DNA of 64,000 bases, taken from contig OZ242011.1 of assembly GCA_965204755.1 (NCBI GenBank), positions 3,392,001 through 3,456,000 of the forward strand, given 5' to 3'. Origin of the DNA: Candidatus Marinacidobacterium sp. (GTDB lineage Bacteria > Acidobacteriota > Vicinamibacteria > Marinacidobacterales > Marinacidobacteraceae). Positions 1,352-34,534 of this stretch are shown in pieces; position 1 is the first letter of the stretch; each line of letters begins with the position of its first letter. Position numbers and translations under genes: made by a program. The notes under the pieces were generated by a model, which had not been told where the DNA came from, ran no database searches, and saw nothing but the letters and a program-made list of their open reading frames with translations.

Positions 1352-10281
<8,930 letters not shown>

Positions 10282-11783: not shown

Positions 11784-12245
11784 TCAGTCCGAATAGGACT
11801 CCAGATCTCGGTCGAAAGTCAGGACTCGCACCTCGAGCCCCTGTCGGCGCAGCGCCCTTGCCAACTCGAGGATCGAGATGTCCGCGAGCGAATACCCCGG
11901 GCCGGATTGGGCGACGAAGCGGTCCGCCAAATCCAGGAGTGTCTTCGCCGTGAGCAGGACACCGTTCTCCGGATCCGATACGACCGTCCAAGGCCGATCG
12001 TCGATAAGCGACATGGCGACATCTTCGCGGTAGCGCTCGGCGAGTCGTCGCCGGCGGTTCCCGTCGCGAACACGGACGATGTGATTGGTGAGTTCGAACA
12101 ACACCGGCAAGGTGACCAGCATCGTTCCTTGCGCCGCTTCTCCGGCCTGTTTCGCGACATCGTCGTATCTCGCTGTCGCTGACGCTTTGGGAACTCGATA
12201 GAGTTCCAGCAGCCAGGAGGTATCGAGAACCGACCAAGAATTCAC
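11784..12245 (-). CDS. PIN-domain protein (putative RNase)
   Basis: Four PIN acidic motifs: VLDTS, VLFE, SLAD, TFDRDL; GTG 12245 overlaps the ATPase stop (GTGA). Confidence 0.75.
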   Translation of the reverse strand: MNSWSVLDTSWLLELYRVPKASATARYDDVAKQAGEAAQGTMLVTLPVLFELTNHIVRVRDGNRRRRLAERYREDVAMSLIDDRPWTVVSDPENGVLLTAKTLLDLADRFVAQSGPGYSLADISILELARALRRQGLEVRVLTFDRDLESYSD

Positions 12246-14566: not shown

Positions 14567-15421
14567 CTACTCCCGCCCGCCGCCGGAAACGGACGGTTCC
14601 GGGGGGCGTCGGCGCGGGGAGGCTTCGGTTGCCCCCGCGGGCGAAGCGCGGCGTCCGGCCGCCTCGTCCGGACGGTTCAGCAGCCGCCAGGCGGCGACGA
14701 CGGCGGCTGTCGGAGTGCGGAGGATCCGCTCCCCGAGGTCGAGCCGCTCGAAACCCCGACGGAGCGCGGCGGCCACTTCGTCAGGCGTGAACCCGCCTTC
14801 CGGGCCGATGGCCGCGACGACCGCATCCGGCGAGACCGCGGAGTCTTCGGTCGGGTCGGTCGCGCCGCCGGGAATCGAAACGGAGGAGGGCCCACGCGCC
14901 TCGTCCCGGGCCGGCGCGGCGATCCACCGCCGGGAGAAACGGTCCGCTTCGCGAAGCCACTCCTCGAAACCCGCCGCCGGCAGGACCTCCGCCATCCCCG
15001 CCCGCCCGCTCTGCCGGGCGCCCGCCAACGCCGCCGCCCGCCAACGCCGGAGCCGCGCCGGCGTCGCCGCGCCCTCGCTCCGCTCCGTGACCAGCGGCGC
15101 GACCGCCGCCGCTCCTACCTCCGACAACTGCCGGCAGATGTCCGTGAACGCGTCGCCCTTCGGGATGGCCACCGCCAGCGTCAACCGCCGGGCCGCTTCC
15201 CGCGCGGCGACCGGCGCCCCCCGCTCCAACCGGCGCCGCCCGTCCGCGTCCACCCCGGCGACCCGCGCCGAGAAGGCCCGTCCCGCGCCGTCGAAGACCT
15301 CCACTTCCGCGCCGGGACGAAGCCGGAGCACCCGCCACAGCCGATGCGACTCCCCCCGGTCGAGCCGTATCTCCGCTTCCTCCCCGGCGGCGGGGGCGAA
15401 GAACCGATGCGCCCGCGCCAC
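14567..15421 (-). CDS. rsmE: 16S rRNA m3U1498 methyltransferase
   Basis: VLRLRPG, ARQSGR, IGPEGGF, LGERILRT. Confidence 0.92.
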   Translation of the reverse strand: MARAHRFFAPAAGEEAEIRLDRGESHRLWRVLRLRPGAEVEVFDGAGRAFSARVAGVDADGRRRLERGAPVAAREAARRLTLAVAIPKGDAFTDICRQLSEVGAAAVAPLVTERSEGAATPARLRRWRAAALAGARQSGRAGMAEVLPAAGFEEWLREADRFSRRWIAAPARDEARGPSSVSIPGGATDPTEDSAVSPDAVVAAIGPEGGFTPDEVAAALRRGFERLDLGERILRTPTAAVVAAWRLLNRPDEAAGRRASPAGATEASPRRRPPEPSVSGGGRE

Positions 15422-15526
15422 TGGTTGGCCTTTCCGCGCCCGATTATCGCCTGCGCCGGCGTTGCCGGGGTTCGCTTGTCGCCGGCTCGTCCCGCTCCGG
15501 GCGCCGGGGCGGCCGCTTGTCTCCGA

Positions 15527-15554
15527 TATTCGTAAAACGATTTTTATGTCAATA
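15527..15554. other. dif-like XerCD site (11+6+11 bp)
   Basis: TATTCGTAAAA-CGATTT-TTATGTCAATA; right arm resembles XerD arms (TTATGT.AA); sits in an AT-rich patch. Confidence 0.45.
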
Positions 15555-15557
15555 ACT

Positions 15558-15621
15558 TACGGATAAATATAACATGTGCGTTATCCACATTCCTCCTGTC
15601 GAAAACCGACTCTGCTACGAT
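15558..15621 (+). promoter_or_regulatory. Island regulatory region: GGATAA/TTATCC inverted repeat, perfect DnaA box (15581-15589), extended -10 TGcTACGAT (15613-15621)
   Basis: Motifs read directly; upstream of the HTH-bearing first island gene. Confidence 0.5.
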
Positions 15622-15639
15622 TCCGCGCCGAGCCCGACC

Positions 15640-18600
15640 ATGTCTCCCGCCGACCCCGTCCCCCTCGACTACCCGGAGCGGGTGCGCGCCGTGCGGCGGC
15701 GGCTGGGGCTGACGCAGACCGAACTGGCCGAGCGGGTGGGCGTCTCCTTCGCCACCGTCAACCGCTGGGAGAACCGCCACACCCGGCCCGCCCGCGTGGC
15801 GTGGAGGCAGGTCGCGAGCCTCGAAGCCGAAGCTGCCGAACGGGAGTGGATGGTCCGCGAGCCGACCGCCGAGGAGTCGATGGTGGACTTCTCCTCCGAG
15901 CCGGAGGTGGTCACCGCGGTCGCGGAAGCCGAGCGGCTGTCGCACGGCTACCTCTCGAATCCGGCGTTCGCGGCGGAGATCTCGTCCGTGGACCCCTTGC
16001 CGCACCAGCGCGTCGCCGTGTACGAGCGGATGTTGAAGCAGCGGCCCCTGCGGTTCCTGCTCGCCGACGACGCGGGCGCCGGCAAGACGATCATGACGGG
16101 CCTCTACCTCCGGGAGGTCTTCGCCCGCCGCCTGGTGAAGCGCGTGCTCATCGTCCCGCCGGCCGGGCTCGTCGGGAACTGGGAGCGCGAGATGCGCGCG
16201 CTGTTCCGGCTCGGCTTCCGCATCCTCGGGCGCGCCGGCGAGCGCCCGGAAAACCCGTTCGTCGGCCCCGAGAGCGACCTGTTGATCGCCGGCGTGGACA
16301 CCCTCGCGGGCGAAGGCGTCTTCGGCAAACTGCGGGACGCGGTCGGCGAAGGCGCCGCCGAGCCGTACGACCTGGTGGTGTTCGACGAGGCGCACAAACT
16401 CTCGGTGAGCCGCGAGGGCGGTTTCCGGGAACGGCGAACGGCCCGCTACGGTCTGGCCGCCGCGCTCGCCGGGCTTCCCGGCGGCGGCCCCCGCTGGCGC
16501 CTCGGCTGGTCGGCGGCGAACCTGCTCCTGCTCACCGCCACCCCGCACATGGGGAAGGACTACCCCTACTACGGCCTCTGGCGGCTGCTCGCGCCGCACG
16601 CCCTGCCGAGCATGGACGCCTTCCCGGACTTCACGCGGGCGGAGAAGGATCGCTTCTTCATCCGCCGCACGAAGGAAGAGATGGTGCGCTTCGACGGCCG
16701 CCCGCTCTATCCGCAGCGGCGCTGCGACACGCTCAGTTACCGCCTCAGTCCGCCGGAGCAGGATCTCTACGACGGGACGACGAAGTACATCGAGGAAGCG
16801 TACAACCGCGCGGCGGGTCTGAACCGGGGGGCGGCGCAGTTGGCGATGACCGTCTTCCAGCGCCGGCTGGCGAGTTCGACCCATGCGCTCATGCGTTCCT
16901 TCGAGCGGCGCATCGAGAAACTGGCCCACGCGGTCGCTCTCGTCCAGGCCGGACGACTGGAGGAACTGGAGGCTCGTCAGCGGCGTCTCGGCCAGACGGA
17001 CGACTACTTCGACTCGCATACGGCGGACGAAGACGCGGACGGGGACGGCGAGGCATCGGCCCGCTTCGAGGAGGACGCGCTCGGCGGGCTGATTGCCCTG
17101 AGCCTTGCCGACCTCCGTGAGGAGCGGACGCGAGTGGCCGATCTGCTCGAGCAGGCCCGCGCGCTGGCGAGCCGGGGGAAGGACGCCAAACTCGAGCGGC
17201 TCACCGAAGTGTTGCGCGATCCCCGCTACCGGGGCGAGAAGGTCATCGTGTTCACGGAACACCGCGACACGGCGGACTTCCTGGTGGGACGGCTCGAGGG
17301 TATGGGTTTCACCGGCCAGGTGGCGACGATCCACGGCGGGCTGGACTACCGGGAGCGCGAGCGCCAGGTGGAGTTCTTCCGCCGTTCTTCCGCGGACGGG
17401 GGCGCGTGCTACCTGGTCGCGACGGACGCGGCCGGCGAGGGAATCAACCTCCAGTTCTGCTGGCTGATGATCAACTACGATGTTCCGTGGAACCCGGCGC
17501 GTCTCGAGCAGCGCATGGGACGGATCCACCGTTACGGCCAGAAGCGGGATCCGGTCGTCATCGTCAACCTGATCGCCGGCGAAACCCGCGAGGGCAGGGT
17601 CGTCGGCGCGCTTCTCGAGAAACTCGAGCGCATTCGCGAGCGGTTGGGTTCGGACAAGGTCTTCGATGTCGTCGGACGGCTGTTTCGCGGTTGCTCGCTT
17701 CGCTCGTACCTGCAGCGGGCGGTCACCGACGAAGGCGCCGAAGAAGCGATCACCGAGATCGACGGCGTCCTCGCCGAGGAGCGCGTCCGGGCCGAGGAAG
17801 AGCGCGAACGATCGCTGTTCGGCGCCGGAGATGTCGCGGCCCGACTGCCCGCCCTGGAGGAGTCGCTCGAACGGGAGCGGTTTCGACGGCTCCTGCCCGG
17901 CTATGTGCGCCGATTCGTCCAGTCCGCCGCGCCGCTCCTCGACCTGCGGATCACCGGTGACCTGGACTCCGGCTTCGGTTTCGACCCCATGCGGGCCGGC
18001 GCCGGCGACTTCCTGTTCCGCGCCGTCGGCTTCTACCCGATCGCGAACCGGGCTTCGTTCTCGGTCCGCCGCCCCGGGGAGGGCGAGGAGGCGACCTGGA
18101 TGCACCCCGGCGAGCCGGTGTTCGAGGCGTTCTGCTCCTGTCTCCGTTCGCGGTACCGACCCCACGCCCTGCAAGGAGCCATCTTCCTCGATCCCGCGGC
18201 CACGGAGCCCTACCTGTTCCATCTCGCCGGCCTGTCGGTCCGGCGCCGCCGGCCGGCGCGGCGGTCGTTCGACCGCGCCGCCTCCGCCGAGGGCGAACGC
18301 GCCCGCTTCGACATCGTGGAGCGGCGCCTGGTCGGGGTCCGACAGGACAACGAGGGGCAGGTGGCCAAGATGGCCGTCGAGCATCTCCTCCTTCTCCAGG
18401 GGGCGGGGGACGCGCTCCCCGGCGCCGTCGCGGTCGCCCGCCGCGCCCGGACGCTGGTCGCCGAGGCGGAGGAGTGGCTTCGCGCGGAGGAACTGGCGGG
18501 TCTCGTCGCCGACTGGCGGAGCGACGCCGAGCGCGCGGCCGAGGGCGAACTCGCGTGGGTCAACCGGGGCTTCGACTACCGGATGGCCGATCTCGTGGCC

Positions 18601-19281
18601 GAGCGCCAGCGGGCGCGCCGGGCCGCGCGGAACGGCGAGCCGGACGCCGAGGAGCGGCTGGCCGAGGTGAAGGAGGAGCAGCGCCGCTTCCACGAACGGC
18701 GGGAGCGCCGGCTGGCCCGCCTGCGCGGGGAGCCGGCGCTGATCGAGCCGGGGGAGGTGGAAATGCTGGCCCATGCCCTCGTGCTGCCGACGCGCGACCC
18801 GGAGAGCGAGCGCCGCCTCGAGGCGGAGGTCGAGCGGGTCGCGATGCGGGTGGCGGCGGCCCACGAGGAGGCCGAAGGCCGGACCGTCCACGATGTGAGC
18901 CGACCGGAACTCGCCCGCCGCGTCGGTCTTCCGGACTGGCCCGGCTTCGACCTCCATTCGGCGGGGCCGGGCCGGGCGAACGGGCCGGCCGACATCCGGG
19001 GCATCGAGGTCAAGGGGCGCGCCGGCGCCGAGGGGGTGCAGATCTCCGAGAACGAGTGGGCGCGGGCCTGCAACCTGCGGGACCGGTACTGGATCTACGC
19101 CGTCCTCGACTGCGCGACGCCGCGCCCGCGCCTCATCCGCGTTCGGGATCCCTTCGGGAAACTCCTGGCCCGACGCCGCGAGTCCGTCGCGGTCTCCGTG
19201 GCGGACCTGTTGCAGGCCGCGGAACCGGAGAGCGGCGTCGGGACGGCGGCGGGGCGGGGGCCGGACGGAGGGGGACGATGA
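15640..19281 (+). CDS. XRE-HTH + SNF2-family helicase + DUF3883 (PD-(D/E)XK-like) nuclease fusion
   Basis: HTH LGLTQTELAERVGVSFATVNRWE; LADDAGAGKT, DEAH, LTATPH, AAGEGINLQ, LEQRMGRIHRYGQ; GFDL...IEVKG...SENEW. Confidence 0.9.
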   Translation: MSPADPVPLDYPERVRAVRRRLGLTQTELAERVGVSFATVNRWENRHTRPARVAWRQVASLEAEAAEREWMVREPTAEESMVDFSSEPEVVTAVAEAERLSHGYLSNPAFAAEISSVDPLPHQRVAVYERMLKQRPLRFLLADDAGAGKTIMTGLYLREVFARRLVKRVLIVPPAGLVGNWEREMRALFRLGFRILGRAGERPENPFVGPESDLLIAGVDTLAGEGVFGKLRDAVGEGAAEPYDLVVFDEAHKLSVSREGGFRERRTARYGLAAALAGLPGGGPRWRLGWSAANLLLLTATPHMGKDYPYYGLWRLLAPHALPSMDAFPDFTRAEKDRFFIRRTKEEMVRFDGRPLYPQRRCDTLSYRLSPPEQDLYDGTTKYIEEAYNRAAGLNRGAAQLAMTVFQRRLASSTHALMRSFERRIEKLAHAVALVQAGRLEELEARQRRLGQTDDYFDSHTADEDADGDGEASARFEEDALGGLIALSLADLREERTRVADLLEQARALASRGKDAKLERLTEVLRDPRYRGEKVIVFTEHRDTADFLVGRLEGMGFTGQVATIHGGLDYRERERQVEFFRRSSADGGACYLVATDAAGEGINLQFCWLMINYDVPWNPARLEQRMGRIHRYGQKRDPVVIVNLIAGETREGRVVGALLEKLERIRERLGSDKVFDVVGRLFRGCSLRSYLQRAVTDEGAEEAITEIDGVLAEERVRAEEERERSLFGAGDVAARLPALEESLERERFRRLLPGYVRRFVQSAAPLLDLRITGDLDSGFGFDPMRAGAGDFLFRAVGFYPIANRASFSVRRPGEGEEATWMHPGEPVFEAFCSCLRSRYRPHALQGAIFLDPAATEPYLFHLAGLSVRRRRPARRSFDRAASAEGERARFDIVERRLVGVRQDNEGQVAKMAVEHLLLLQGAGDALPGAVAVARRARTLVAEAEEWLRAEELAGLVADWRSDAERAAEGELAWVNRGFDYRMADLVAERQRARRAARNGEPDAEERLAEVKEEQRRFHERRERRLARLRGEPALIEPGEVEMLAHALVLPTRDPESERRLEAEVERVAMRVAAAHEEAEGRTVHDVSRPELARRVGLPDWPGFDLHSAGPGRANGPADIRGIEVKGRAGAEGVQISENEWARACNLRDRYWIYAVLDCATPRPRLIRVRDPFGKLLARRRESVAVSVADLLQAAEPESGVGTAAGRGPDGGGR

Positions 19282-20930
19282 GACTGACGCGGGTGGAGAT
19301 CGAGAACTTCCGCTGCATCGAGCGGATCTCCGTGGATCTGGACGAGACCACGGTCCTCATCGGCGAGAACAACTCCGGCAAGACCGCCTTCCTGGATGCG
19401 GTCCGCCTCTGTCTGGACCCGCCCTTCGGACGGAAACGGCGGCCGTTCGAAGAGTACGACTATCGGCTCTCCGAAGGGAAGGCGTCCCCGGCCGAGGCGC
19501 CGCCGATTCGGATCGAGTTGGTCTTCGCGGAGGGATTCCCCAAGGAATGGCCGGAGGATGTGCGCCAGGATTTCCGGGAGGTCATCGATCGGGACCCGGA
19601 GGAGCGCGGCGTGATCCGACTGCGCGTGACCGCGTCGTTCCCTTCGGACACGGAGTGGGAGTTCCTCACGGAGATGGAAGGACCGACCGAACGGCCCGCG
19701 TTCTTGGAACGCATCCGGCGCTTGGCGCCGGTGAACTATCTTTCGGCTCTTCGGGATGCCGAGAAGAACTTCGCATCCCGCGGCCGCTATTGGCGGGACT
19801 TTCTCGACGAGACCGGAATCCCGACCGAGGAGCGGGCCGGCCTGGAACGGGAACTCCACGAGGTCAACACGCGGATCGTAGCGCAGCACCAGCCGTTGGC
19901 GAGCGTACGAGAACAACTCGAGGTCGTGAGGAAGGTGCTCGACTTCGCCGCAGCAGATGCCGTCAGTGTGGATGCACTGCCGACCAAACTCTTTGCCCTC
20001 TTGTCGGGCGCGCAAGTGAGTTTGGCCTCGCGTTCGGGCGCTCGCATCCCCGTGACGCGCCAAGGACAAGGAACGCAGAGTCTCGCCGTACTTGCGCTGT
20101 TCGCCGCCTTCTTGGGCAGTCGCCGCGCCGCGGGGCAGCCGGAGGCAGTCCCGATTACGGCTCTCGAAGAACCGGAAGCGCACCTCCATCCGGCCGCCGT
20201 GCGCGCGCTGATGCGCATCGTGGACGAGATACCGGGGCAGAAGTTGATCGCGACGCACAGCGGGGACCTCATGGCCCAGGTCTCGACGACACAGATCCGC
20301 CGGTTCGCGCCCGAGGGTTCCGGTGTCGCGGTTCACCGAATCGCGAAGGACAGCCTGAGTCGGGAGGAAGCCGGGAAATTCGACTTCCATGTGAAGCGTG
20401 TGCGCGGCGAACTGCTCTTCGCCCGTTGCTGGCTCCTCGTGGAGGGCGAGACGGAGGAAACCCTCTTTGCGGGAGCCGCGAGGGTGATGGACCGCGACCT
20501 GGACCGAGCCGGCGTTCGCCTGGTGAAGATCACCGGCGCCGGGCCGGAAATGTTCGTGAAGGCGGCGGAGGCGCTGGGGATCCGCTGGCGATGCGTGGTC
20601 GATGACGACGATGCGGGTCGACGCTATCGGAGATCCATCGCCAAAGTGGTGGGGCAGGAAGCGGCAGCGCGCCGGGTGTCTTCGCCGTATGTTTCACCGG
20701 AAGAGTGCTTGCTCGACGGGGGTTTCGACGAACTCTACGAGCGGCGCCCCACGGTCGGTGATCGGCCGCCGTCGGTGCGACCGCAGTCACTCAAGACCGT
20801 CCCGAAGCGCGGGACGAAGCCGGCGGCTGCGGCGGAGGCAGTGGAGTTGATCGAAGCGGACCCCGATCGGCTTCCGGCGGCGATTCGCGATATCGTTAGC
20901 GATGTCTTGGCCGTGGCGGGAGAAGTGTGA
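19278..20930 (+). CDS. OLD-family ATP-dependent endonuclease (GajA-like)
   Basis: IENFR, GENNSGKT, LEEPEAHLHP, ATHS; TOPRIM LLVEGETE and VDDDDAG; ATGA overlap with the helicase gene. Confidence 0.88.
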   Translation: MRLTRVEIENFRCIERISVDLDETTVLIGENNSGKTAFLDAVRLCLDPPFGRKRRPFEEYDYRLSEGKASPAEAPPIRIELVFAEGFPKEWPEDVRQDFREVIDRDPEERGVIRLRVTASFPSDTEWEFLTEMEGPTERPAFLERIRRLAPVNYLSALRDAEKNFASRGRYWRDFLDETGIPTEERAGLERELHEVNTRIVAQHQPLASVREQLEVVRKVLDFAAADAVSVDALPTKLFALLSGAQVSLASRSGARIPVTRQGQGTQSLAVLALFAAFLGSRRAAGQPEAVPITALEEPEAHLHPAAVRALMRIVDEIPGQKLIATHSGDLMAQVSTTQIRRFAPEGSGVAVHRIAKDSLSREEAGKFDFHVKRVRGELLFARCWLLVEGETEETLFAGAARVMDRDLDRAGVRLVKITGAGPEMFVKAAEALGIRWRCVVDDDDAGRRYRRSIAKVVGQEAAARRVSSPYVSPEECLLDGGFDELYERRPTVGDRPPSVRPQSLKTVPKRGTKPAAAAEAVELIEADPDRLPAAIRDIVSDVLAVAGEV

Positions 20931-22882
20931 TGGTGGATGTCGACGACCTGAACGGCAATCAGCAGGTGGCGGCGGCTTGGGGCGAGGGGCCGCTGCTCGT
21001 CCTGGCCGGGCCGGGGGCCGGCAAGACTTCGGTGTTGACACTGCGCGTGGTTCGCCTCATCCGGGAGACGCCCAAGAAGAGATTCCGCGTCCTCGGGCTG
21101 ACCTTCACGAACAAGGCCGCCGACGAGATGCGGCGGCGGGTGCGACGGCGGCTCCGCCGGGATGCCGAACGCACCGACCTTACGACCTTTCACTCGTTTG
21201 CGATCACCGTACTCAGACAGCACGGCGGCCGCATGGGACTCCATCCCGATCTCGCGGTGCTGGCGGACGACCGGGATCGCCTGGCGCTCCTCCGGAAGGC
21301 CGTCGAACGCGTGGGGGCGAGCGGCCCGCCGGATTGGTCAGAAGCGGGACTCCTCCGCAAGTTGGACTCTTGGATGGCCAGCGGGGAGGATGTCACGGAG
21401 ATCGCGGCGCCCGACCGGGAAGCGTGGATTCGTCCGGTGTACGGCGCCTATCTCGACCTGCTCATGGAGCGGAACAGTCTGGACTTCCCGGCGTCCCTGA
21501 TCCTGTGTCGGCGACTCTTCCGCGAGCGGCCGATATTCGCCGAGGACCAACGAGTCGTCTATCCGTACGCCTGCGTGGACGGGTACCAGGACACGAACCG
21601 CGCCCAGGACCGGCTCCTCCGGGACATCTACCCGGACCGCGACGCCAACCTGTTCGTGGTGGCGGACGACGACCAGACGATCTACGAGTGGAACGGCGCC
21701 ACTCCGACGCGGCTTCGCGCGCTCCGGGATTACTACGGAATGAGGGTTCTCCAACTGCCGAGGAGTTTTCGGTGTCCGTCGGCGGTGACCGGCCGCGCGA
21801 ACCGCCTGATGGGGCGCGACCGCGAGCGGCTGTTCGAGAAGGAGCCGCCGGAGTCGGCGGCGCCGACGGACGCCGGAGAAGTCTTGCGGGCGTTGAAGTT
21901 CGCCGACGAGGGCGAGGAGGCCCGGTGGATCGCGGGGGACATCGCCGCGAGGCCGGAACCGGGGCGGTGCGCGGTGTTGGCGCGGACGCACCGGTTGTTG
22001 GATGCGGCGGCGAAGGCGCTCGAAGCCGCGGGAATCGCCTGCCAGGTTACCGAAGTGAAGAGGGAGTTCGAGTCACCGCTGGTCGTGTTCGTCCACGCCG
22101 TGCTGCGGCTGGCCAACGCGCCGACCCACCGGGAACACTTCGCGACGGTTTGCCGGGCTTACCGGGACCTGACCGGCGTGGACCTCGGGCCGGAAGAGGT
22201 GGAGGCCGAGAGCGCGCTCACCGGGCGGCCCCTCTTGGTGGGATTTGCGGAAGTGGCCGCGTCGCGGGCCGTGAACGGGCAGCCGTCGCTGGTCGCCGCC
22301 GTGCGAGAACATGTCCTGGAGGTCCTCGACTACCGGAAGTTCGTTGCCGCGGCTTTCGAGTGGACCGGTGGCGGCGAAGACCGGCTGCTGGCCGGCCGGG
22401 ACGAGACGAACCAGGGGTGGGAGATCCGGGCGTGGCGCGATCTCGGGCGGCAGATCCGGGGAGCGGTCGGGGACCGGCCGTCCCTGCGGCGATTCCTCGA
22501 AGAGATGGACGGGAGGCCGAAGAGCCGTCCGGCCGGCGAGAACGAGGTCCGCTGCCTGACGATCCACGGAGCGAAGGGGCTGGAGTTCGAGCATGTCTAT
22601 GTCGCCGGCCTGGCGCAGGGCGAACTCCCCTCGTATCGGGCCGTCCGGCGGGGCGGGGAGGCGATCCGGGAGGAACGCCGCGCCTGCTTCGTGGCCATCA
22701 CGCGGGCGGCGGGCAGCCTTACGCTGACGCACGCGGATTCGTACTTCGGTTGGCGGAGGGAGCCGTCGCAGTTCCTGGCCGAGATGGAGGTAGAGACGGT
22801 GAACGGGAGTACGCCGCTTGTCGAAAGCCGCGACGGGCTCTCGGAAGCGCTCCCCGAACATCGAGTCGCCGAAGGGGCGTGA
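20927..22882 (+). CDS. UvrD/Rep-like SF1 helicase (GajB-like) with an atypical Walker B
   Basis: AGPGAGKT, LTFTNKAA, TFHS, VDGYQD, DDDQTIY, TIHGAKGLEF, EERR...VAITRA; GTGA overlap. Confidence 0.88.
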   Translation: MMVDVDDLNGNQQVAAAWGEGPLLVLAGPGAGKTSVLTLRVVRLIRETPKKRFRVLGLTFTNKAADEMRRRVRRRLRRDAERTDLTTFHSFAITVLRQHGGRMGLHPDLAVLADDRDRLALLRKAVERVGASGPPDWSEAGLLRKLDSWMASGEDVTEIAAPDREAWIRPVYGAYLDLLMERNSLDFPASLILCRRLFRERPIFAEDQRVVYPYACVDGYQDTNRAQDRLLRDIYPDRDANLFVVADDDQTIYEWNGATPTRLRALRDYYGMRVLQLPRSFRCPSAVTGRANRLMGRDRERLFEKEPPESAAPTDAGEVLRALKFADEGEEARWIAGDIAARPEPGRCAVLARTHRLLDAAAKALEAAGIACQVTEVKREFESPLVVFVHAVLRLANAPTHREHFATVCRAYRDLTGVDLGPEEVEAESALTGRPLLVGFAEVAASRAVNGQPSLVAAVREHVLEVLDYRKFVAAAFEWTGGGEDRLLAGRDETNQGWEIRAWRDLGRQIRGAVGDRPSLRRFLEEMDGRPKSRPAGENEVRCLTIHGAKGLEFEHVYVAGLAQGELPSYRAVRRGGEAIREERRACFVAITRAAGSLTLTHADSYFGWRREPSQFLAEMEVETVNGSTPLVESRDGLSEALPEHRVAEGA

Positions 22883-22959
22883 AGGCGTCCTTCGGAGATG
22901 ACCGTGAGCGCTGATCCGGAAGGGACTCTCGGCGCGCCGGTCGGTCGAGGTGTCGCGGC

Positions 22960-25900
22960 ATGACGACGCCGAAGCGACTGATCGAAGTGGGGTTTCCGCT
23001 GGAAGCGGTGTCGCTGGATTCGGCTCATGAGAAGAATGTGCGGCATGGGCACTTGTCCACGCTGCACATCTGGCCGGCGCGGAGGCCGCTGGCGGCGTGT
23101 CGGGCGGCGTTGATCGGGGCGCTGCTGCCGGATCCCGGGAGCGAGAGGAAGCGGCGGGATCTCCATGCGCGGATGGCGGGTGCGGTGATGACCGACCGCC
23201 GGGACGAAGTTTCCGGGGGGCGGCGGGTATCCGCGCCGAAGCGCGTTACCGTGGGCGGGATCCTGCACTGGGGGCGGGAAGCGGACGAGGGGATCGAGCA
23301 GTTTCGGGCCGACATTCGCCGGGCCTTCGGGGGGCGGGCGCCGCGCGTGCTGGATCCGTTCGCCGGGGGCGGGGCGATACCGCTGGAGGCGATGCGGCTC
23401 GGGTGCGAGGTCGAGGCGGCGGACATCAACCCGGTGGCGTGGTTCCTTCTCCGGTGCGCGCTGGAGTACCCGCAGCGGCTCGCGGGGAAGACGAGGCCGC
23501 TGCCTCGTTTCGCGCGGTCCGACCGGGAGTTCATGGGCGAGTATTGGAAGAGCCGGGGGTATCGGCGGGGCGAGATCGCGTCGAGGCTGGACGCGATGGA
23601 GGCCGAGGGGACCGCGGACAGTCGCGGGGAGGCGAGGCGGATGTTTCCGCTCGAGGAGGCCGTCGACGGGAACTTGGCTTGGCAAGTTCGGGCGTGGAGC
23701 CGGCGGGTGCTCACGGGGGCGCGGAGGCGGCTCGCCGCGCGCTATCCGGTCTATGCCGAGTTCGTTCCGCTGCGGAGGGGAGACCGGCCGTACGAGGAAC
23801 GGGCACCGCGCCGCCTCGCGCCCGATGCGGAGGGGAGGGTGACGGTGGATACGCTGAACGAGGGACTCGACGGCCGCTACCTGGCGGACCGCGAGAATCC
23901 GCGGTGGGTGGCGAAGCCGGCGGCGGCGTACCTCTGGGCGCGGACGGTGGAATGCAAGCGGTGCCGCGCGGAACTGCCGCTGTTGAAGACCCGCTGGCTG
24001 TGCCGCCGTCCGGGGAAGCGCGTCCTGTTGACGATGGCGCCGAACGGGACCGGTACCGGTGTGGTGTTCGGTGTCGAGGAGGGGGTCGAGGCGGCGTCCG
24101 CGAAGGCGGCCGGGACCGGGGAGGGGACGACCAGCCGCACCGGCGCGCGCTGCCCGTGCTGTTCGAACATCATGGCGATGGAAGACCTCCGGATCGAGGG
24201 GCGCGCCGGACGGATGGGCGCGGTGATGACCGCCGTCGTCGTGGATGGGCCCTCCGGCAAGGAGTACCGGAGGCCCCGGGCGGAGGAAATCCAAGCGGCG
24301 ACCGTCGAGGACACGGAACTCGCGGCGCTCTACGAGGACATCCCGTTCGGCCCTCCCGACGAGCCGACTCCGAGCAAAGAGAGCCTCGGAGTCAACATTC
24401 CGCTGTACGGCTTCGACACCTGGCGCACGGTGTTCGGGAGCCGGCAACTGCTGGCGATGGGCGCCTTCGTGAGGGAGGTCCGCGCGTGTCGTGGAGAACT
24501 GGCTGACGATCCCCGATGGTGGCGGGAAGCGATCTCGGCGTACTTGTCATGTGTCGTGAGCAAACTGGCCGACTACAGCAGCGCCTTGTGTTCTTGGGAC
24601 AATGGCCGCGAAACCTTGAGGGACACTTTCGCGCGCTTTGCGTTCCCCATGGTCTGGGACTATTGCGAAGTGAACCCGTTGGCGACAGGAACCGGCGGTT
24701 TTTCGCGTATGGCGGAATGGGTGAGCCGCTATCTGGAACACGCGGACACCGCAACTGCGGGAGCGGGCAGGCCGAAGATCCAGGCTCGCAGCGCGTTGTC
24801 GGCGCCTTCCGGCCAGTTCGATCTGATATGCACGGATCCTCCGTACTACGACGCCATCCCGTACTCGGACTTGATGGACTTCTTTCATGTCTGGTTGCGC
24901 CGGGCCCTCCACGGCCTTTCCCCGGAGATGGACGAGGCGTTCGCGCCGGCGCTCGGCCCCAAGTGGAGCGAGCCCTCGGGTGACGGCGAACTCATCGACG
25001 AGTCGGCGCGGTTCGGGGGAGACCGGGAACGGTCGAAGCGGAACTACGAAGACGGAATGGAGCGGGCGTTCTCGCGGTGCCGGGATGCCCTGAGCGACGA
25101 GGGGCGGCTCGTCGTCGTGTTCGCCAACAAGCAGCCGGACGCCTGGGAGACGCTCGTCGCGGCGCTGATCCGCTCCGGTTTCGTGGTGACCGGCTCGTGG
25201 CCCATCCGGACCGAGATGCAGACGCGGCAGCGGTCCCTGGGTTCGGCGGCGCTCTCGTCTTCCGTGTGGCTCGTGTGCCGGAAGAGGCCGCCGAAGGCGG
25301 CGCCCGGCTGGGACAGGAAGGTGCTCGCCGAGATGCGGGAGAGCATCAAGACTCGGCTCCGGGTCTTCTGGGACGCCGGGCTGCGAGGCCCGGACTTCGT
25401 TTGGGCGGCGACGGGCCCGGCCCTCGAAGCGTTCTCCGGGCATCCCGTCGTGAAGCGCGTCGCCGCGCGTCGGGCCGGCGCGTCGGCGACTCTCGGAGTC
25501 GCCGAGTTCCTGAGGGAAGTGCGCCGGATGGTGGTGGACTTCGTGGTGAGGCGGGTCCTGACGGCGGACGAGTCCGGCGATGAAAGTCGCCGGACCGGCG
25601 TCCGCGAGCCGTCCTCGTCGGGGACGGAGACGAACGAAGGCGCCGTCGCCGGCCTGGACGATGTAACCACCTACTACCTGCTGCACCGCCAGGACTACGG
25701 GCTGGAGTCCGTGCCGGTGGGTGCTTCGATCCTCTATGCGCAGTCGTGCGGCATACCGGACCGGGACCTGTCCGGGACCCTCGACCTGCTCGAGACGGGG
25801 AAGGGCAAAGGGTCGGGCCGCGGCGACGAGGCGGCGGACGAGGGCGAAGCCGGCGCGAGCGGCGAGCCGGACGCGGGCGGGACCGAAAGCGCGGGCGCCG

Positions 25901-26220
25901 GAGGAACGGCGCGGCTCAAGGCGTGGAACCGGCGCGCGCTGAAGCCGCTCCGCGAGGAGCGGGCGGACGACCGCCCGACGCCGCTGATCGATCACGCCCA
26001 CCGCCTGATGGGGCTCTGGAGCGCCGGTAACGAGGCGAAGGTGAACGAGTACCTCCACCGCCGCGGCCTGCTGCGGAACTCGTTGTTTCCGCGAGTGCTG
26101 CAGGCGCTCGTGGAACTCGCTCCGGCGGAGTCCGAGGAACGGCGACTTCTCGAGTCGGTGGCCCGGCAGGTGGCCGCCGAGGCCGGCGGCGCCGTGAACC
26201 CGGACCTCGGCGCCGAATGA
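22960..26220 (+). CDS. DUF1156-domain amino-DNA methyltransferase
   Basis: LHIWPARRPLAACRA, VLDPFAGGGAIPLEA (SAM motif), TDPPYYD, CxxC pairs. Confidence 0.92.
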   Translation: MTTPKRLIEVGFPLEAVSLDSAHEKNVRHGHLSTLHIWPARRPLAACRAALIGALLPDPGSERKRRDLHARMAGAVMTDRRDEVSGGRRVSAPKRVTVGGILHWGREADEGIEQFRADIRRAFGGRAPRVLDPFAGGGAIPLEAMRLGCEVEAADINPVAWFLLRCALEYPQRLAGKTRPLPRFARSDREFMGEYWKSRGYRRGEIASRLDAMEAEGTADSRGEARRMFPLEEAVDGNLAWQVRAWSRRVLTGARRRLAARYPVYAEFVPLRRGDRPYEERAPRRLAPDAEGRVTVDTLNEGLDGRYLADRENPRWVAKPAAAYLWARTVECKRCRAELPLLKTRWLCRRPGKRVLLTMAPNGTGTGVVFGVEEGVEAASAKAAGTGEGTTSRTGARCPCCSNIMAMEDLRIEGRAGRMGAVMTAVVVDGPSGKEYRRPRAEEIQAATVEDTELAALYEDIPFGPPDEPTPSKESLGVNIPLYGFDTWRTVFGSRQLLAMGAFVREVRACRGELADDPRWWREAISAYLSCVVSKLADYSSALCSWDNGRETLRDTFARFAFPMVWDYCEVNPLATGTGGFSRMAEWVSRYLEHADTATAGAGRPKIQARSALSAPSGQFDLICTDPPYYDAIPYSDLMDFFHVWLRRALHGLSPEMDEAFAPALGPKWSEPSGDGELIDESARFGGDRERSKRNYEDGMERAFSRCRDALSDEGRLVVVFANKQPDAWETLVAALIRSGFVVTGSWPIRTEMQTRQRSLGSAALSSSVWLVCRKRPPKAAPGWDRKVLAEMRESIKTRLRVFWDAGLRGPDFVWAATGPALEAFSGHPVVKRVAARRAGASATLGVAEFLREVRRMVVDFVVRRVLTADESGDESRRTGVREPSSSGTETNEGAVAGLDDVTTYYLLHRQDYGLESVPVGASILYAQSCGIPDRDLSGTLDLLETGKGKGSGRGDEAADEGEAGASGEPDAGGTESAGAGGTARLKAWNRRALKPLREERADDRPTPLIDHAHRLMGLWSAGNEAKVNEYLHRRGLLRNSLFPRVLQALVELAPAESEERRLLESVARQVAAEAGGAVNPDLGAE

Positions 26221-26366
26221 TCCTGCGGCTTCTCCCGAATCGCCCCGGTCCCCCGACCGGGAATCGGCCCGGCGCCCCCGGCGGGGGCATACTCCCCGCC
26301 GGACGCGGCCCTCTCGCTCGGAGGAAACCATACCGGGCGATCTGAAGAAGGAACGAAACCCGAACC

Positions 26367-29300
26367 ATGCCCAAGACCCCCCCGTGGACGCCGTGGCGTC
26401 AAGTCGTCGAACTGAGGGACGATGTGCGCACCGGCGAACTCTCGCTCACGGAGTTCGCGGCCGACCTGCACGATGTGATGATGCAGCAGGGCGCCCGGCC
26501 GATCTACGAGGACCCGGCGCGCTTCTTCGCGCTGACCTACCCGACGCTGTCGCTGCGCGAACTGGCGCGGGATGTGGCGCTGCGCCTTGCGGGAAAGAGC
26601 ACGAAGGCCATCCGTCAACTGGAACAACCCTACGGGGGCGGCAAGACCCACACGCTGGTCACGCTGCGGCACCTCTTCCACGATCCGGCTCGTCTCCCGT
26701 CGCTGCCGGCCGTCAAGCAATTCCGTTTCGAAGTCGAGGGCGAATTGCCGGGCGCCTGCGTCGCGGCGCTCAGTTTCGACAAGTTGGATGTGCAGTTGGG
26801 GATGGAAGTCCTGGGCCCGACCGGGGAGAAGCGCCGCCTCCGCCAGCCGTGGAGCGTCCTGGCGTTCCAACTCGCCGGGGCGGACGGACTCCGGGCACTC
26901 CACGCGGATGGGCGCGACGAAGAGCGGGAGCCGCCGCCGGCCGAGCCGCTCCTGGCCGCGCTGCTGGCGAAGCCGGCGGAACGGGGGCTCGGCACGCTCG
27001 TGTTGATAGACGAGGTGTTGATGTATGCACGGGAGAAGGCGGCCGTTTCTGACCGGGACCGCGTGCGGCTCGTGGACTTCTTCCAGTACCTCACCCAGGC
27101 CGCGGCCCATGTGGATCGGTGCGTCGTGGTCGCCTCGCTGCTCGCTTCGAACCCGGAGAAGAGCGACGCTCTCGGCCGGTCGGTGAGCGCCGAGATCTCC
27201 GACATCTTCGGCCGGCAGCGCGAAGAAGGCGTGCAGCCGGTGCAGAAGGAAGATGTGGCGGAGGTGATGCGGCGCCGGTTCTTCACGCCGGAGTCCATCG
27301 CGGACCGGGAGGCGTTTCGTCCGCAGGTTTCCGGCGCGGTCAAACGGATCGCCGGGGTCCACGACGCCACCGCCGGGGAGCGCCGCAGCGAGGAAGAGCG
27401 GTTCCTTCGGAGTTACCCGTTCCACCCCGACCTCACGGACATCTTCTACAGCCGCTGGACGCAGTTGGAGCGGTTCCAGCGGACGCGCGGCATCCTCCGG
27501 GTCTTCGCCATCGCGCTGCGCGACGCCGAGGCGTGGGACGACGGGCCGCTGGTGGGGCCGGGCGCGCTGCTTCCGAAACCGGGCGCCGGCGGTATCGCCG
27601 AGGCGGCGCGCGAACTCGCGGAGGTCGCGACCCTTTCCGCCGGAGAGGAGGGCGGGAACGCCTGGAACACGGTGCTCGAAGGGGAGTTGGACAAGGCGCG
27701 GCAGATCCAGGAGGAGAGCGGGCGGCTTCGTTTCCGGGAGATGGAACAGGCGGTCGCCGCCGTGTTCCTGAGTTCGCAGCCGGCCGGGCAGAAGGCGCAC
27801 ACGCCGGAACTCGCCGCGCTCGCCGGGGCCACCGGGCCGGACCGCATCGAACTGGAGAAGGGGCTCCGCCGCTGGACCGAAGTGTCCTGGTTCCTCGACG
27901 ACGCCGAGTACGGCGACCGGGACTCGACGAAGGACCTGCCGAACGCCTGGCGGCTGGGGCAGCGGCCGAACCTGAAGCAGATGCACCACGAGGCCCGAAC
28001 CAACCGGGTCGCGGCCGAGTCGGTGGAAGCGGCGGTGCTGGAAGCCGTGCGCAGGGCCAAGAGCCTGACCGAAGGCGCGAGGGAGGCCGGGGCGCGGCTC
28101 CACCGCCTGCCGGAGTCACCGCAGGACATCGCGGACGACGGGGAGTTCCACTTCGTCGTCCTCGGGCCGAAAGCGGCGTCCGACTCCGGGAAGCCGAGCG
28201 CCGAGGCCAAGCGGTTCGTCGAAGAGAAGGCGTCGGGGGCGGATCGCCGCTGTCGAAACGCGGTCGTGGTGGCCGTTCCGTCGCGCGACGGGTTGAAGGC
28301 GCTTCAGGACGCCGCCCGCGACTTGCTCGCGTGGGACGCGGTTCGCAAGCAACTCCAGGGGGAATCCCTGGATGCGGCTCGAGAAGCGATGCTGGCGAGC
28401 GAGTCGAACAAGGCGCGGCAGCGCGTGGCCACGGGAGTGCGGCAGGCGTGGACCGTCATCGTCGGCGCCGACGAAGGCGGCGGGGTCGGCGCCTTCCGGT
28501 TGCCGCCGAGCGCCGACCCGCTCTTCCTCGCGGTGAAGGCGGACCGGCGCGCCCGGATCGAGGAGACCGCGATCGAGCCGCAGGCGCTGCTGCCGGAGGG
28601 GCCCTACGACCTCTGGCGCGAGGACGAAGAGTCGCGCCGCGTGAAGACGCTGGTGGAGGCGTTCGCGGAGGACCCCGCGCTGCCGCGCATGATCGGCCGG
28701 AAGGGGATACGGGACACGGTCAGCGCCGGCGTCCGGGAAGGCGCCTTCGTGGCTTCGCTCCGCCGCCCGGACGGCTCCGTCCGGACCTGGTGGCGGGCGA
28801 AACTCGACGAGTCGGCGTTCGAGTCGGCGGAACTCGAAGTGATCCGACCGGGAAAGGCCGGCCTCACCGCGCTGGACGCGGAGTTGCTGGCGCCGGGTGT
28901 CTTGCCGGACCTCTGGGAAGGGGACTCGGTGGAGGTCTCCCGCGTTCTCGAGTACTTCTCCGGCGGGAAGCAGGTGACCGTCCCGCGGGACGGTTTCGAG
29001 GAGTCGCTCGATGTTCCGAAGTGCCCGCGCGAGGTCGTGGAGGCCGCCGTCGCGGAGGCGGTTCGCGCCGGTTCGGTCTGGTTGCGGAACGGGCCGGCGA
29101 GTTTCCAGGGGGAAGAAGTTCCGGCGGGGGTGTTGACGGCTTCCGCGTCGCTCCGCCGCCCCATGTCTCCCCTCCCGGTGGACCGCTTCACCGAGGAGTC
29201 CTTGCCCGAGGTGTGGCGCGACGGACGGGCCAACCTGGTGGCGGTGGCGGCGGCGATCGAGGCGCAGGAGGGGCATCCGGCGCCGTGGGCGGTTCTCCGC

Positions 29301-29708
29301 CAGGGGGTCGAGAACGCGGTGCGCGCCGGGTGGCTGACGGTCGCTCCCGAGAGCGGGGGGTGGCCCTGCGAGGCGTCCGGGGCGCCGGCGGTCGTGCTCG
29401 CGCGGCCCTCGGCGCGTCCCGACCGGAAGAAACGCCGGCGGCCGGACGGGGCGCCGTTCGGGCCCTACTCGACCTCGGCCGACGGGCTGCAGGACCTGAC
29501 CGATGCCCTGCCGGAACTGCTTCGGGCGACCGCCGGCACTCCGGTGGAGTTCCGCGTCGCCGTCGTGCTCGGAAGCGGGAAGGAACCCGCCGGCCCGGAG
29601 ATCGTGGAGAAGGTGACCGCGCTGCTCGCGGGCATCCACTCCGACTTCGGCCCGAAGCCGCAGGAAGAACCGCGCTCGCTCCCCGGCGGCGCGGAAGACT
29701 CCGACTGA
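26367..29708 (+). CDS. DUF499-family AAA+ ATPase
   Basis: PWRQVV, YGGGKTH, LIDE, SYPFHP, FQRTRGILR. Confidence 0.9.
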   Translation: MPKTPPWTPWRQVVELRDDVRTGELSLTEFAADLHDVMMQQGARPIYEDPARFFALTYPTLSLRELARDVALRLAGKSTKAIRQLEQPYGGGKTHTLVTLRHLFHDPARLPSLPAVKQFRFEVEGELPGACVAALSFDKLDVQLGMEVLGPTGEKRRLRQPWSVLAFQLAGADGLRALHADGRDEEREPPPAEPLLAALLAKPAERGLGTLVLIDEVLMYAREKAAVSDRDRVRLVDFFQYLTQAAAHVDRCVVVASLLASNPEKSDALGRSVSAEISDIFGRQREEGVQPVQKEDVAEVMRRRFFTPESIADREAFRPQVSGAVKRIAGVHDATAGERRSEEERFLRSYPFHPDLTDIFYSRWTQLERFQRTRGILRVFAIALRDAEAWDDGPLVGPGALLPKPGAGGIAEAARELAEVATLSAGEEGGNAWNTVLEGELDKARQIQEESGRLRFREMEQAVAAVFLSSQPAGQKAHTPELAALAGATGPDRIELEKGLRRWTEVSWFLDDAEYGDRDSTKDLPNAWRLGQRPNLKQMHHEARTNRVAAESVEAAVLEAVRRAKSLTEGAREAGARLHRLPESPQDIADDGEFHFVVLGPKAASDSGKPSAEAKRFVEEKASGADRRCRNAVVVAVPSRDGLKALQDAARDLLAWDAVRKQLQGESLDAAREAMLASESNKARQRVATGVRQAWTVIVGADEGGGVGAFRLPPSADPLFLAVKADRRARIEETAIEPQALLPEGPYDLWREDEESRRVKTLVEAFAEDPALPRMIGRKGIRDTVSAGVREGAFVASLRRPDGSVRTWWRAKLDESAFESAELEVIRPGKAGLTALDAELLAPGVLPDLWEGDSVEVSRVLEYFSGGKQVTVPRDGFEESLDVPKCPREVVEAAVAEAVRAGSVWLRNGPASFQGEEVPAGVLTASASLRRPMSPLPVDRFTEESLPEVWRDGRANLVAVAAAIEAQEGHPAPWAVLRQGVENAVRAGWLTVAPESGGWPCEASGAPAVVLARPSARPDRKKRRRPDGAPFGPYSTSADGLQDLTDALPELLRATAGTPVEFRVAVVLGSGKEPAGPEIVEKVTALLAGIHSDFGPKPQEEPRSLPGGAEDSD

Positions 29709-29742
29709 GCCGCCGGCGCGCCCGCCACCGGGGCCGAGGCGG

Positions 29743-30891
29743 CTACGAGAACAGGCGGTCGAAGAGGGAGGTCTTGGCGTCCTCGGCGGCGGCGCCACGG
29801 CCTCCCGCCGCGCCGTCCCGGCGGCGGAGTTCGCGGTCGAGGGATTCCACCGCCTTCTTCGCTCCGGGGGACAGGTCGGTCGGGACGCGGACGCGCACGC
29901 GGATCAGGTGGTCGCCCCGGGAGCGGCTGCGGAGCACCGGGAAACCCTTCCCGCGCAGGCGGAGCACCCGTCCGGGCTGCGTTCCGGCGGGGACGCGGAG
30001 GGACTGGTCGCCCCAGATGGTGGCGATGCGGGTCTCGGTCCCGAGCGCCGCTTCCGGGAAACTGAGGGAGATCTCGCTCAGCACATCGGCGCCGCGCCGC
30101 TCGAATCCTTCCGCCGGGCGGACGCGCACCTGGACATAGAGGTCTCCCGGCGGGCCGCCCTTGCCGCCGGTTTCGCCTTCGCCGGAGATGCGGAGTTGGT
30201 TGCCGTCTTCGATCCCGGCGGGAAGCCGCACCTTGATCTCGCGTTCGCGGGAGCGGGCGCCGCGGCCCCGGCATTCGGGGCAGGGGTCGGAGATCACCTG
30301 GCCCGACCCCCGGCACGCCGAGCAGGTGCGGCTGATCATCATGAAGCCGCGGGACACGGTTTCCTGGCCGGTGCCGCTGCATCGGCCGCAGGCGAGCGGC
30401 TGCGCCCCGGCCCTCGCGCCGGTCCCGCGGCAGTCGTCGCAGGGTTCGGCGCGGCTGACCAGGATGCGTTTTTCGGTGTTCTCGCGGGGTTCGGCGAAAC
30501 CCAGGGTGACTTCGTACTGGATGTCCCGGCCGCGGGAGGCGCGCGCCCCCCGTCCGCCGGAGCGGCCGCCGAACATTTCGCCGAAGAGGTCGAAGACGCT
30601 GCCGCCGAACAGGTCCTGGAAGTCGGCGAAGACTTCGCTGTTGACCTGCGGCCCGGCGCCGCTGACTCCCGCGTGGCCGAAGCGGTCGTAGCGGGCGCGC
30701 TTCTCCCGGTCGGCGAGGACGCCGTAGGCCTCGGCGGCTTCCTTGAACGACTCCTCGGCGGCCTTGTCGCCGGGGTTCTTGTCCGGATGGTGGCGGAGCG
30801 CCAGTTTCCGGTAGGCGCGCTTGATGTCCTCCGGCGAAGCGTCCCGGCCTACGCCGAGGACCTCGTAGTAGTCGCGCCGGTCGCTCGGCAT
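29743..30891 (-). CDS. dnaJ: Chaperone DnaJ
   Basis: J domain with HPD, G/F region, four CxxCxGxG repeats. Confidence 0.97.
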
Positions 30892-34458: not shown

Positions 34459-34534
34459 TGGAGCGGGCGACGGGGCTCGAACCCGCGACACCGAGCTTGG
34501 GAAGCTCGTACTCTGCCAACTGAGATACGCCCGC
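34459..34534 (-). tRNA. tRNA-Gly(CCC)
   Basis: GCGGGCG/CGCCCGC acceptor stem, CGAGC-TTCCCAA-GCTCG anticodon arm, GGTTCGAGCCC T arm, encoded CCA; TAGAAT upstream (34547-34552). Confidence 0.97.

Follow-up and report, generated by a model that had tools for sequence, protein, structure and literature searches.

A Gabija-lineage gene pair embedded in an Hma operon of Candidatus Marinacidobacterium sp., with a GajB that lacks the Walker B glutamate

We analysed a 64,000-nucleotide (nt) stretch of a Candidatus Marinacidobacterium sp. assembly (GCA_965204755.1, contig OZ242011.1, positions 3,392,001 to 3,456,000; hereafter the window), in which a preliminary description had singled out five genes as a candidate composite defence system. 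Judged by their sequences, the outer three genes are an Hma operon (hmaA, hmaB, hmaC), an already catalogued Type-1 system related to bacteriophage exclusion (BREX), and the inner two (gajA, gajB) are Gabija by descent. Most probably, the locus is an Hma operon with Gabija-lineage cargo in its hmaA-hmaB insertion hotspot, expressed from one promoter, with layers that act separately. What is new is that, across the lineage, GajB seems to be drifting towards a pseudo-helicase while the neighbouring GajA is intact. Below, G000 denotes the window's genome, G001, G005, G010, G014 and G015 sister genomes of the host family, X2, X3, X4 and X8 other sequencing runs, L numbers loci and P numbers GajB proteins.

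Loss of the Walker B glutamate in GajB

Motif II of the window GajB reads V-D-G-Y-Q-D and aligns with D223-E224 of the helicase PcrA, where helicases read D-E-x-Q; we take E224 to be the general base. The D-E pair is kept in 33 of 35 wider GajB homologs (two short sequences dropped) and in 113 of the 120 nearest GajB clusters. Contigs from two other runs, X2 from the same sample (depth 266) and X3 from another study (depth 2), match the window over the codon without a difference. A sequencing error was rejected, as these contigs agree and further D-G alleles exist.

We compared 37 distinct close GajB alleles, made up of 11 cluster representatives at ≥81% identity and members of 6 of these clusters. 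Eleven of the 37 are D-G and 26 are D-E, and the two forms coexist at 81-94% identity. All 11 D-G alleles are 649-650 amino acids (aa) long and show no change in motifs V and VI. They vary by 4.2% at 221 conserved columns versus 11.2% at 428 variable columns, similar to the D-E alleles (6.0% versus 13.0%), and still look constrained, in a test that is biased towards intact genes by covering only called, near-full-length ones. No close truncated GajB was present among the 120 short matches listed and no short piece exceeded 62% identity; pieces at 56-59% identity carry D-E and fall outside the degenerate group described below. The close alleles are mosaic, with residues 1-100 the most variable (16-22% versus 3-5% at 501-600), and motifs Ia and Ib are changed in many close D-E alleles. 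The X4 relative has GAG at the codon, in a 90%-identical patch and with the same hmaA-gajA junction. The codons at this position are GGG in the window, AGG in the first G001 copy and GAG in X4, which take three steps under a single as under a repeated origin of the change; two GajB trees differ in topology. Between G000 and the two G001 copies, the ratio of nonsynonymous to synonymous substitution rates (dN/dS) is 0.33-0.47 for GajB and 0.24-0.29 for GajA, with dS near-saturated.

The orthologous Hma of G001 (L128:6387-13813) contains two tandem Gabija pairs, whose GajA copies are 71% alike. Its first GajB is full length yet degenerate in motifs Ia, II, III, IV, V and VI, and its second GajB is intact. 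Three further full-length GajB pseudo-helicases (P0021-P0023, 647-651 aa) are 72-79% like the degenerate G001 copy and are still more constrained at conserved columns. Walker B loss was seen in two groups and no others, the window's close alleles and these degenerate sister GajB.

In the Gabija system of B. cereus, the double change D162A/E163A is reported to abolish defence, raise linear-DNA cutting and partly lift ATP inhibition (PMC10822852), and the DExx motif is described as required for defence in the P. aeruginosa PA14 system (bioRxiv 10.1101/2025.08.30.673261). Because changing the same motif abolishes defence in two tested Gabijas, the window GajB would be either crippled or working differently. 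Our literature search found no paper on a natural Walker-B-less GajB.

Organization of the cassette

The five genes are co-directional open reading frames in the order and at the positions first described, as the frames and Pfam confirm. Their best PADLOC matches (HmaA, GajA, GajB, HmaB, HmaC) bear out the claim that one defence module is nested inside another. The features of the locus are as follows.

14567..15421, minus strand: rsmE, host gene, left flank of the insertion site (Pfam; synteny)
15613..15621, plus strand: extended -10-like element, putative operon promoter, 18 nt ahead of the hmaA ATG
15640..19281, plus strand: hmaA, XRE-type helix-turn-helix (HTH), SNF2 helicase and NOV_C/DUF3883 PD-(D/E)XK nuclease (Pfam; PADLOC; motifs)
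19278..20930, plus strand: gajA, class 2 OLD nuclease, ABC ATPase and TOPRIM (PADLOC; PDB matches; motifs)
20927..22882, plus strand: gajB, full-length UvrD/PcrA-like superfamily 1 (SF1) helicase (PADLOC; PcrA alignment; motifs)
21581..21583, plus strand: GajB Gly219 codon GGG at the Walker B glutamate position (alignment; other-run contigs; alleles)
22960..26220, plus strand: hmaB, DUF1156 N6-adenine-type DNA methyltransferase (Pfam DUF1156; PADLOC; motifs)
26367..29708, plus strand: hmaC, DUF499 AAA+ ATPase (Pfam DUF499; PADLOC; motifs)
29743..30891, minus strand: dnaJ, host gene, right flank of the insertion site (Pfam; synteny)

The hmaA frame is open upstream to 15574. We favour the start at 15640 because the extended -10-like element recurs in sister genomes, a similar element, judged by eye, preceding hmaA in most of 9 sister loci compared. 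Of the two 4-nt overlaps in the preliminary description, ATGA at 19278-19281 (hmaA/gajA) stands. GTGA is likewise present at 20927-20930, but an ATG follows at 20930 and database GajB is 650 aa, so that the gajA/gajB overlap may be 1 nt (TGATG) and not 4. Gaps of 77 nt (gajB-hmaB) and 146 nt (hmaB-hmaC) separate the remaining genes. A single promoter likely heads the cassette, and one transcript is probable, in keeping with the proposed co-expression of the inner pair with the outer genes. A sigma-70 consensus scan of 15300-29900 returned no promoters (0.4 expected) and 4 terminators (6.8 expected). Among the patterns tried over 15400-29760, no slippery repeat was found in hmaB, the one exception being a 7-C run in the first hmaC codons. 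The guanine-plus-cytosine (GC) content of gajA is 0.656 (0.79 at third codon positions) versus 0.719 (0.90) for hmaA and 0.717 for the genome, a suggestive difference.

The outer genes form an Hma operon

The hmaA product contains HTH_3, SNF2, Helicase_C and NOV_C domains (DUF3883; NOV_C at 1086-1183), and its best PADLOC match has an E value of 1.5e-154 over residues 103-1218. K171, DEAH at 271-274, D1126, E1145, K1147 and E1161 are intact (numbered from 15574). HmaB (Pfam DUF1156; best PADLOC match E 3.1e-116) has FAGGG at 132, DPPY at 626-629 and two CxxC motifs, common to all 26 aligned sequences; with these adenine-type methyltransferase motifs, a methylation-based outer layer, as first proposed, is the predicted one. 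HmaC (Pfam DUF499; best PADLOC match E 1.1e-76) retains Walker A GGGKT and Walker B LIDE, and gave no HEPN match.

Hma has been defined as a three-gene helicase-methylase-ATPase operon (PMC8565338) and as the Type-1 BREX-related (BR) system without DUF3780, the Type-1 BR helicase carrying a C-terminal PD-(D/E)XK nuclease in 79% of taxa (PMC12839542). In the window, the core genes are co-oriented, two genes lie between hmaA and hmaB, where up to three are allowed, and DUF3780 is missing. As the preliminary description had noted, no DUF3780 is visible: the gaps of 77 and 146 nt leave no room for a standalone gene, and a PF12635 (DUF3780) profile search of the genome gave no match, though the same search also matched none of 14 controls. 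The missing DUF3780 and the DUF3883 helicase had been read as deviations and are instead the normal Hma architecture. Nor is the HTH an oddity: 69 of 78 outside relatives share the fusion (2 of 80, cut by a contig end, were dropped), and an HTH-fused HmaA of Burkholderia sp. OAE615 is listed in a published supplement (PMC11232893).

G000 also has a paralogous Hma at 49-54% identity (G000:C1:1992414-2017248; L081, L082). Its hmaA and hmaB are about 7 kb apart and its hmaB and hmaC about 8 kb apart, and the second of these gaps holds three ABC-ATPase genes (HEC-01A- and PD-T4-4A-like). More Hma/BR-like pieces lie in G000:C1 near 242000, 2131000-2151000, 2324000-2337000 and 3089000 (L083, L085-L088). 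Among them are one close hmaB that stands alone, a distant cluster containing two split hmaB genes, and an hmaC-hmaB-SNF2 cluster. Overall, G000 has at least 6 DUF1156-like genes.

The inner pair is Gabija by descent

GajA contains an AAA/ABC-type ATPase, DUF2813 and an OLD-like TOPRIM domain by Pfam, matches PADLOC PDLC00094 (E 2.2e-163 over 1-548) and, in the PDB, matches OLD (6p74) and GajA. K35, E297/E298, H327, E389 and D442/D444 are intact, and all 120 of the 120 sequences compared retain the Walker A lysine, Walker B, the H-loop, the TOPRIM glutamate and DxD. GajB (Pfam UvrD and UvrD_C; PADLOC GajB PDLC00114, E 8e-195 over 1-622) has motifs I, Ia, Ib and III-VI intact; only motif II is altered. 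Trees of the two genes (FastTree for GajB) place both among free-standing gajA-gajB pairs. The hallmarks of Gabija are thus present in the OLD-type ATPase and TOPRIM of GajA, with its glutamate and DxD, and in the adjacent downstream UvrD-like gajB. The GajB DExx (Walker B) motif is missing (D-G-Y-Q), and because of this we call the pair Gabija by descent and not a working canonical Gabija. The OLD and UvrD architecture had been recognized correctly in the preliminary description, which overlooked the lost glutamate.

We found no second gajA in G000. A RecB family search of this genome gave no match over the cut-off, and two long AddA/RecB-like frames are present. GajA occurs in 17 of 401 genomes of a phylum sample (3 candidates scored per genome), and viral contigs gave 21 loci, the best at 38% to GajB.

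Cargo of the hmaA-hmaB slot

A survey of what lies between the helicase and methyltransferase genes, suggested with the preliminary description, was carried out in 28 genomes of the host family, which gave 11 close hmaA matches in 9 genomes. Gabija stands directly behind hmaA in 4 of these 11 loci, namely in G000, G001 (two tandem pairs), G014 and G005. Among the others, hmaB follows after a stretch of other DNA in five, one reaches a contig edge after an IetA-like gene, and one is split, with no hmaB within 36 kb. The cargo of sister loci includes Menshen-, HEC-01-, PDC-M07-, Ppl- and IetA-like matches (36 picked frames scanned), and the paralogous Hma of G000 holds other cargo as well. The tight hmaA-gajA overlap is kept in G000 and G001 but not throughout, the two genes being separated by about 290 nt in G014 and by about 130 nt in G005; the cargo, too, varies between sisters. 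Behind Gabija, G005 (L131:3714-10209) carries a Menshen-like nsnABC set, a second NsnA-like gene and a PDC-S20-like gene, and G014 (L130:10211-14412) a PD-Lambda-5A-like gene and a methyltransferase-like gene.

The family holds seven gajA copies in 5 genomes. Five are in the hmaA-hmaB gap, one stands directly before hmaB without an hmaA match, and one is away from Hma; six of the seven form one clade (SH-aLRT branch support 99, quick tree). Gabija-bearing HmaA falls in two separate branches of the HmaA tree, each beside Gabija-free HmaA, a pattern that suggests that Gabija was either gained once, long ago, and repeatedly replaced, or gained twice.

Beyond the family, 80 hmaA loci, some of them near-duplicates, were surveyed; 45 show both hmaA and hmaB and 35 are uninformative. 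The gap exceeds 400 nt in 31 of the 45 and contains Gabija in one (L223), where the Gabija belongs to another clade. This locus (L223:5507-9080, a metagenome contig) is an independent hmaA-gajA-gajB-hmaB-hmaC arrangement with PDLC00070/PDLC00117 matches and an intact DEYQD. Conversely, none of 80 gajA loci from other genomes is nested in Hma; 56 have wide flanks, and 2 adjoin Hma-like genes. Since the nesting occurs in 4 of the 11 loci of the family, in 1 of the 45 informative hmaA loci outside it and in none of 80 outside gajA loci, the sequences indicate that this is not a dedicated five-gene composite system; yet the nested order is no one-off, being carried by the four family loci and L223. 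The outer three genes are catalogued as Hma and the inner pair as Gabija.

Insertion site and assembly support

In both G000 and G001, the cassette is flanked by dnaJ and rsmE and runs on the strand opposite to them. The two flanking genes are ≤1.5 kb apart in 22 of the 25 genomes from the family's other genera, and therefore the whole unit came into this site by insertion. The hmaA-gajA junction is bridged by an X4 contig and the gajB-hmaB junction by an X8 contig; as contigs of other runs span both junctions, the nesting is not an assembly join. Across gajB-hmaB, the bridging run, labelled sponge metagenome, has 31 differences in 1,178 nt. In X4, hmaA and hmaB are about 99% identical to the window, but gajA is far more different (window 19322-20085) and gajB patchy, from which it follows that the cargo changes faster than its host genes.

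Several other features lie nearby. Two genes from the cassette, window 11784-13540 (minus strand) encodes an ABC ATPase and PIN pair matching PADLOC PDC-M07A/B (E 8e-73, 5e-21); an ATPase like the PDC-M07 one also lies between hmaB and hmaC in G015. At 8758-10281 (minus strand) is an AlbA_2 (Schlafen), HATPase_c_4 and TPR protein, similar to proteins that are Hma cargo in G010 and G001. A tRNA-Gly(CCC) gene at 34459-34534 (minus strand) is 4.7 kb from the cassette and not at its edge. A 1,530-aa protein at 46885-51477 (plus strand) combines an N-terminal sacsin/Tiamat-like ATPase (TmtA E 5e-50) with a C-terminal ResIII/RadD-like superfamily 2 helicase and sits in a lower-GC stretch (47-51 kb).

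Discussion

We propose that the locus is probably an Hma operon with separately acting Gabija-lineage cargo. In MANTIS, a DUF499 ATPase is described as loading the methyltransferase, adenine methylation as marking self, and unmarked sites as bringing in the motor-nuclease (bioRxiv 10.64898/2026.09.23.753747). By analogy with MANTIS and Halomonas HmaA, HmaC would load HmaB on a short site, HmaB would methylate adenine as a self mark, as in MANTIS, and unmarked sites would recruit HmaA, whose SNF2 motor would move on DNA while its C-terminal nuclease nicks. The HTH of HmaA probably autoregulates the promoter. GajA, as the intact nuclease, and GajB would form a Gabija complex; that of B. cereus VD045 is a 4:4 assembly (PMC10781630). 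PA14 Gabija is reported to be non-abortive and licensed by RecBCD loss from DNA ends (bioRxiv 10.1101/2025.08.30.673261), and by analogy the window's complex may act on DNA that the end-repair complex of the host leaves unprotected. Its trigger would be the state of DNA or of the nucleotide pool, not Hma. The D-G GajB most likely still adopts its fold and binds both GajA and ATP, with ATP hydrolysis impaired, which would leave Gabija retuned or weakened.

Some observations weigh against this account. HmaB was without effect in the one published Hma test (PMC11232893), which leaves methylation-based discrimination by Hma a prediction. Both genomes with known context have a Walker-B-less GajB inside Hma, as functional coupling would predict. 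The Gabija-Hma link in the family is strong and old, with five of seven gajA copies in the gap, a sixth before hmaB and six in one clade, and GajA divergence (44-46%) is similar to that of the Hma genes (about 50% for HmaA).

It is possible, though doubtful, that the embedded Gabija is dead or dying, with the D-G loss of function spreading because it removes a cost and the apparent constraint being inherited or recombined from D-E alleles. The essential role of the motif in two tested Gabijas, the changed motifs Ia and Ib in close D-E alleles and the mosaic nature of the alleles are all consistent with this, as is the sister group (G001 first copy, P0021-P0023), which has partly lost motifs II-VI and in G001 stands beside an intact pair. 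G000, too, is without a second gajA. However, a dying gene would not readily explain why 11 of 11 D-G alleles keep 649-650 aa, unchanged motifs V and VI and a pattern of variation similar to that of D-E alleles, why no short piece exceeds 62% identity among the 120 listed, or why the GajA residues are intact in 120 of 120.

We consider it unlikely that the D-G GajB instead hydrolyses ATP well enough through another acid or a water network, in an ordinary working Gabija. Constraint is normal and a single motif position differs in the window GajB, in line with this reading, but the position aligns with PcrA E224, and D-E is kept in nearly all nearest clusters and wider homologs.

The preliminary description proposed a backup nuclease that fires when the first layer is inhibited. 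We found no locus-specific support for this; PA14 Gabija is RecBCD-licensed, and the window GajB lacks a needed residue. A fuller version, in which GajAB is wired to Hma, seems improbable; GajA might, for instance, be licensed by nicks that HmaA makes or by an Hma complex that has stalled or been inhibited, so that GajB would no longer need its own ATPase. The position of five of seven family gajA copies behind hmaA, with a sixth in one clade, the overlap kept in G000 and G001, and the full-length, constrained D-G alleles beside an intact GajA would fit such coupling, and precedents are cited in a preprint by Payne (PrrC in EcoprrI; Ocr as a Gabija trigger). In contrast, 7 of 11 sister Hma loci are without Gabija behind hmaA, 26 of 37 close GajB alleles keep D-E, the X4 relative has D-E behind the same hmaA-gajA junction, the Gabija clade is common without Hma, and G014 and G005 combine 130-290 nt of hmaA-gajA spacing with 4-6 further cargo genes. 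We also regard as quite improbable that, in this host lineage, the embedded Gabija has come to depend on Hma as one of its arms. GajB would then be on its way to a scaffold without ATP hydrolysis, its D-G alleles maintained by selection and the sister group degenerate beyond them, while the HmaA motor or nicks, or Hma blockage, license GajA; if true, two separate defence systems would be observed in the process of fusing, and natural alleles of both kinds, D-E and D-G, would be at hand for comparison. An artefact in the D-G reading or the nested order is hardly credible: the source is a metagenome-type assembly, 89% complete, but X2 and X3 are identical over the codon, 10 further D-G alleles exist, both junctions are bridged in X4 and X8, and G001 has the same order at the same site.

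Neither the slot as an insertion hotspot nor the backup hypothesis is new to the literature. According to the Payne preprint, 931 of 1,485 Hma systems (62.7%) contain embedded genes, known defence systems make up 22.8% of what is embedded in Hma, and 96.7% of embedded genes are co-oriented across host systems (bioRxiv 10.1101/2024.01.29.577857); a second source gives insertions in about 66.5% of Hma loci (PMC11232893). The same preprint proposes backup, redundancy and co-regulation and, for BREX, an embedded PARIS or Gabija triggered by Ocr. OLD-ABC nucleases have been described as a backup layer that is pervasive among BREX and BR systems, in 1,242 taxa (PMC12839542). In Table S7 of PMC11232893, where the context covers 5 of 18 OLD-nuclease rows, an OLD gene lies between hmaA and hmaB in Ca. 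Desulforudis and an OLD fragment there in Desulfovibrio, and OLD and UvrD pairs stand beside, not inside, Hma in Chelatococcus, Burkholderia and Variovorax. We found no statement of Gabija between hmaA and hmaB in the literature text, although figures and supplements may well list it. The preliminary description did not claim to know that the combination is undescribed; the exact five-gene order was not seen in that text, and the embedding and the backup idea are published.

The nested layout is one more example of a published rule; the GajB alleles bear on wider questions. Control of GajA by the GajB ATPase is named as an open question (PMC10781630), and a natural series of GajB with and without the catalytic glutamate, beside an intact GajA, bears on whether GajB hydrolysis is dispensable. 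The Payne preprint leaves open whether an embedded system depends on the Hma around it, and the same alleles bear on this too.

Comparison with known systems

With Hma/Type-1 BR systems (PMC8565338, PMC11232893, PMC12839542), the locus shares hmaA, hmaB and hmaC, the lack of DUF3780 and cargo between hmaA and hmaB. Halomonas HmaA, with Septu embedded, is reported to restrict T4 alone via its nuclease (PMC11232893), and its four tested nuclease residues have counterparts in the window HmaA. The locus differs in the N-terminal XRE HTH of HmaA, which is common in its subclade, in an HmaC without a HEPN match, and in its cargo, which is Gabija where Halomonas Hm43005 has Septu. Nesting and co-orientation are those of the Hma-embedded systems in the Payne preprint, whose main text names Septu and 'several other' systems, not Gabija.

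With the Gabija systems of B. cereus VD045 and PA14, the inner pair shares the gajA-gajB order, the ABC ATPase and TOPRIM with its glutamate and DxD, and the SF1 helicase partner. Compared with solved Gabija (PMC10781630, PMC10822852), the window GajA belongs to a distant clade (E 3e-13 to solved GajA), and GajB is a 650-aa PcrA-like protein to which no solved GajB passed E 1e-15. Unlike in the tested Gabijas, its Walker B glutamate is replaced by glycine.

MANTIS/Gao_RL, a Type-2 BR system (bioRxiv 10.64898/2026.09.23.753747; NF042962-NF042964), shares the DUF499 ATPase, the DUF1156 methyltransferase and the SNF2 motor with a nuclease. It is a four-gene system that includes a DUF3780-type co-factor and whose helicase bears an N-terminal PLD nuclease; the locus described here has neither. 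Membership was rejected, the window proteins scoring 86-171 bits against NCBIfam cut-offs of 1000-1200. A PLD/HKD N-terminus on the helicase was likewise rejected, as an HTH is found there, with no PLD match and 141 bits for NF042964 against a cut-off of 1100. PrrC in EcoprrI and BrxU in BREX are also nucleases nested in a methylation-based locus. However, PrrC is described as almost only embedded and held in check by its host system, whereas most members of the window's Gabija clade found outside the host family are free-standing.

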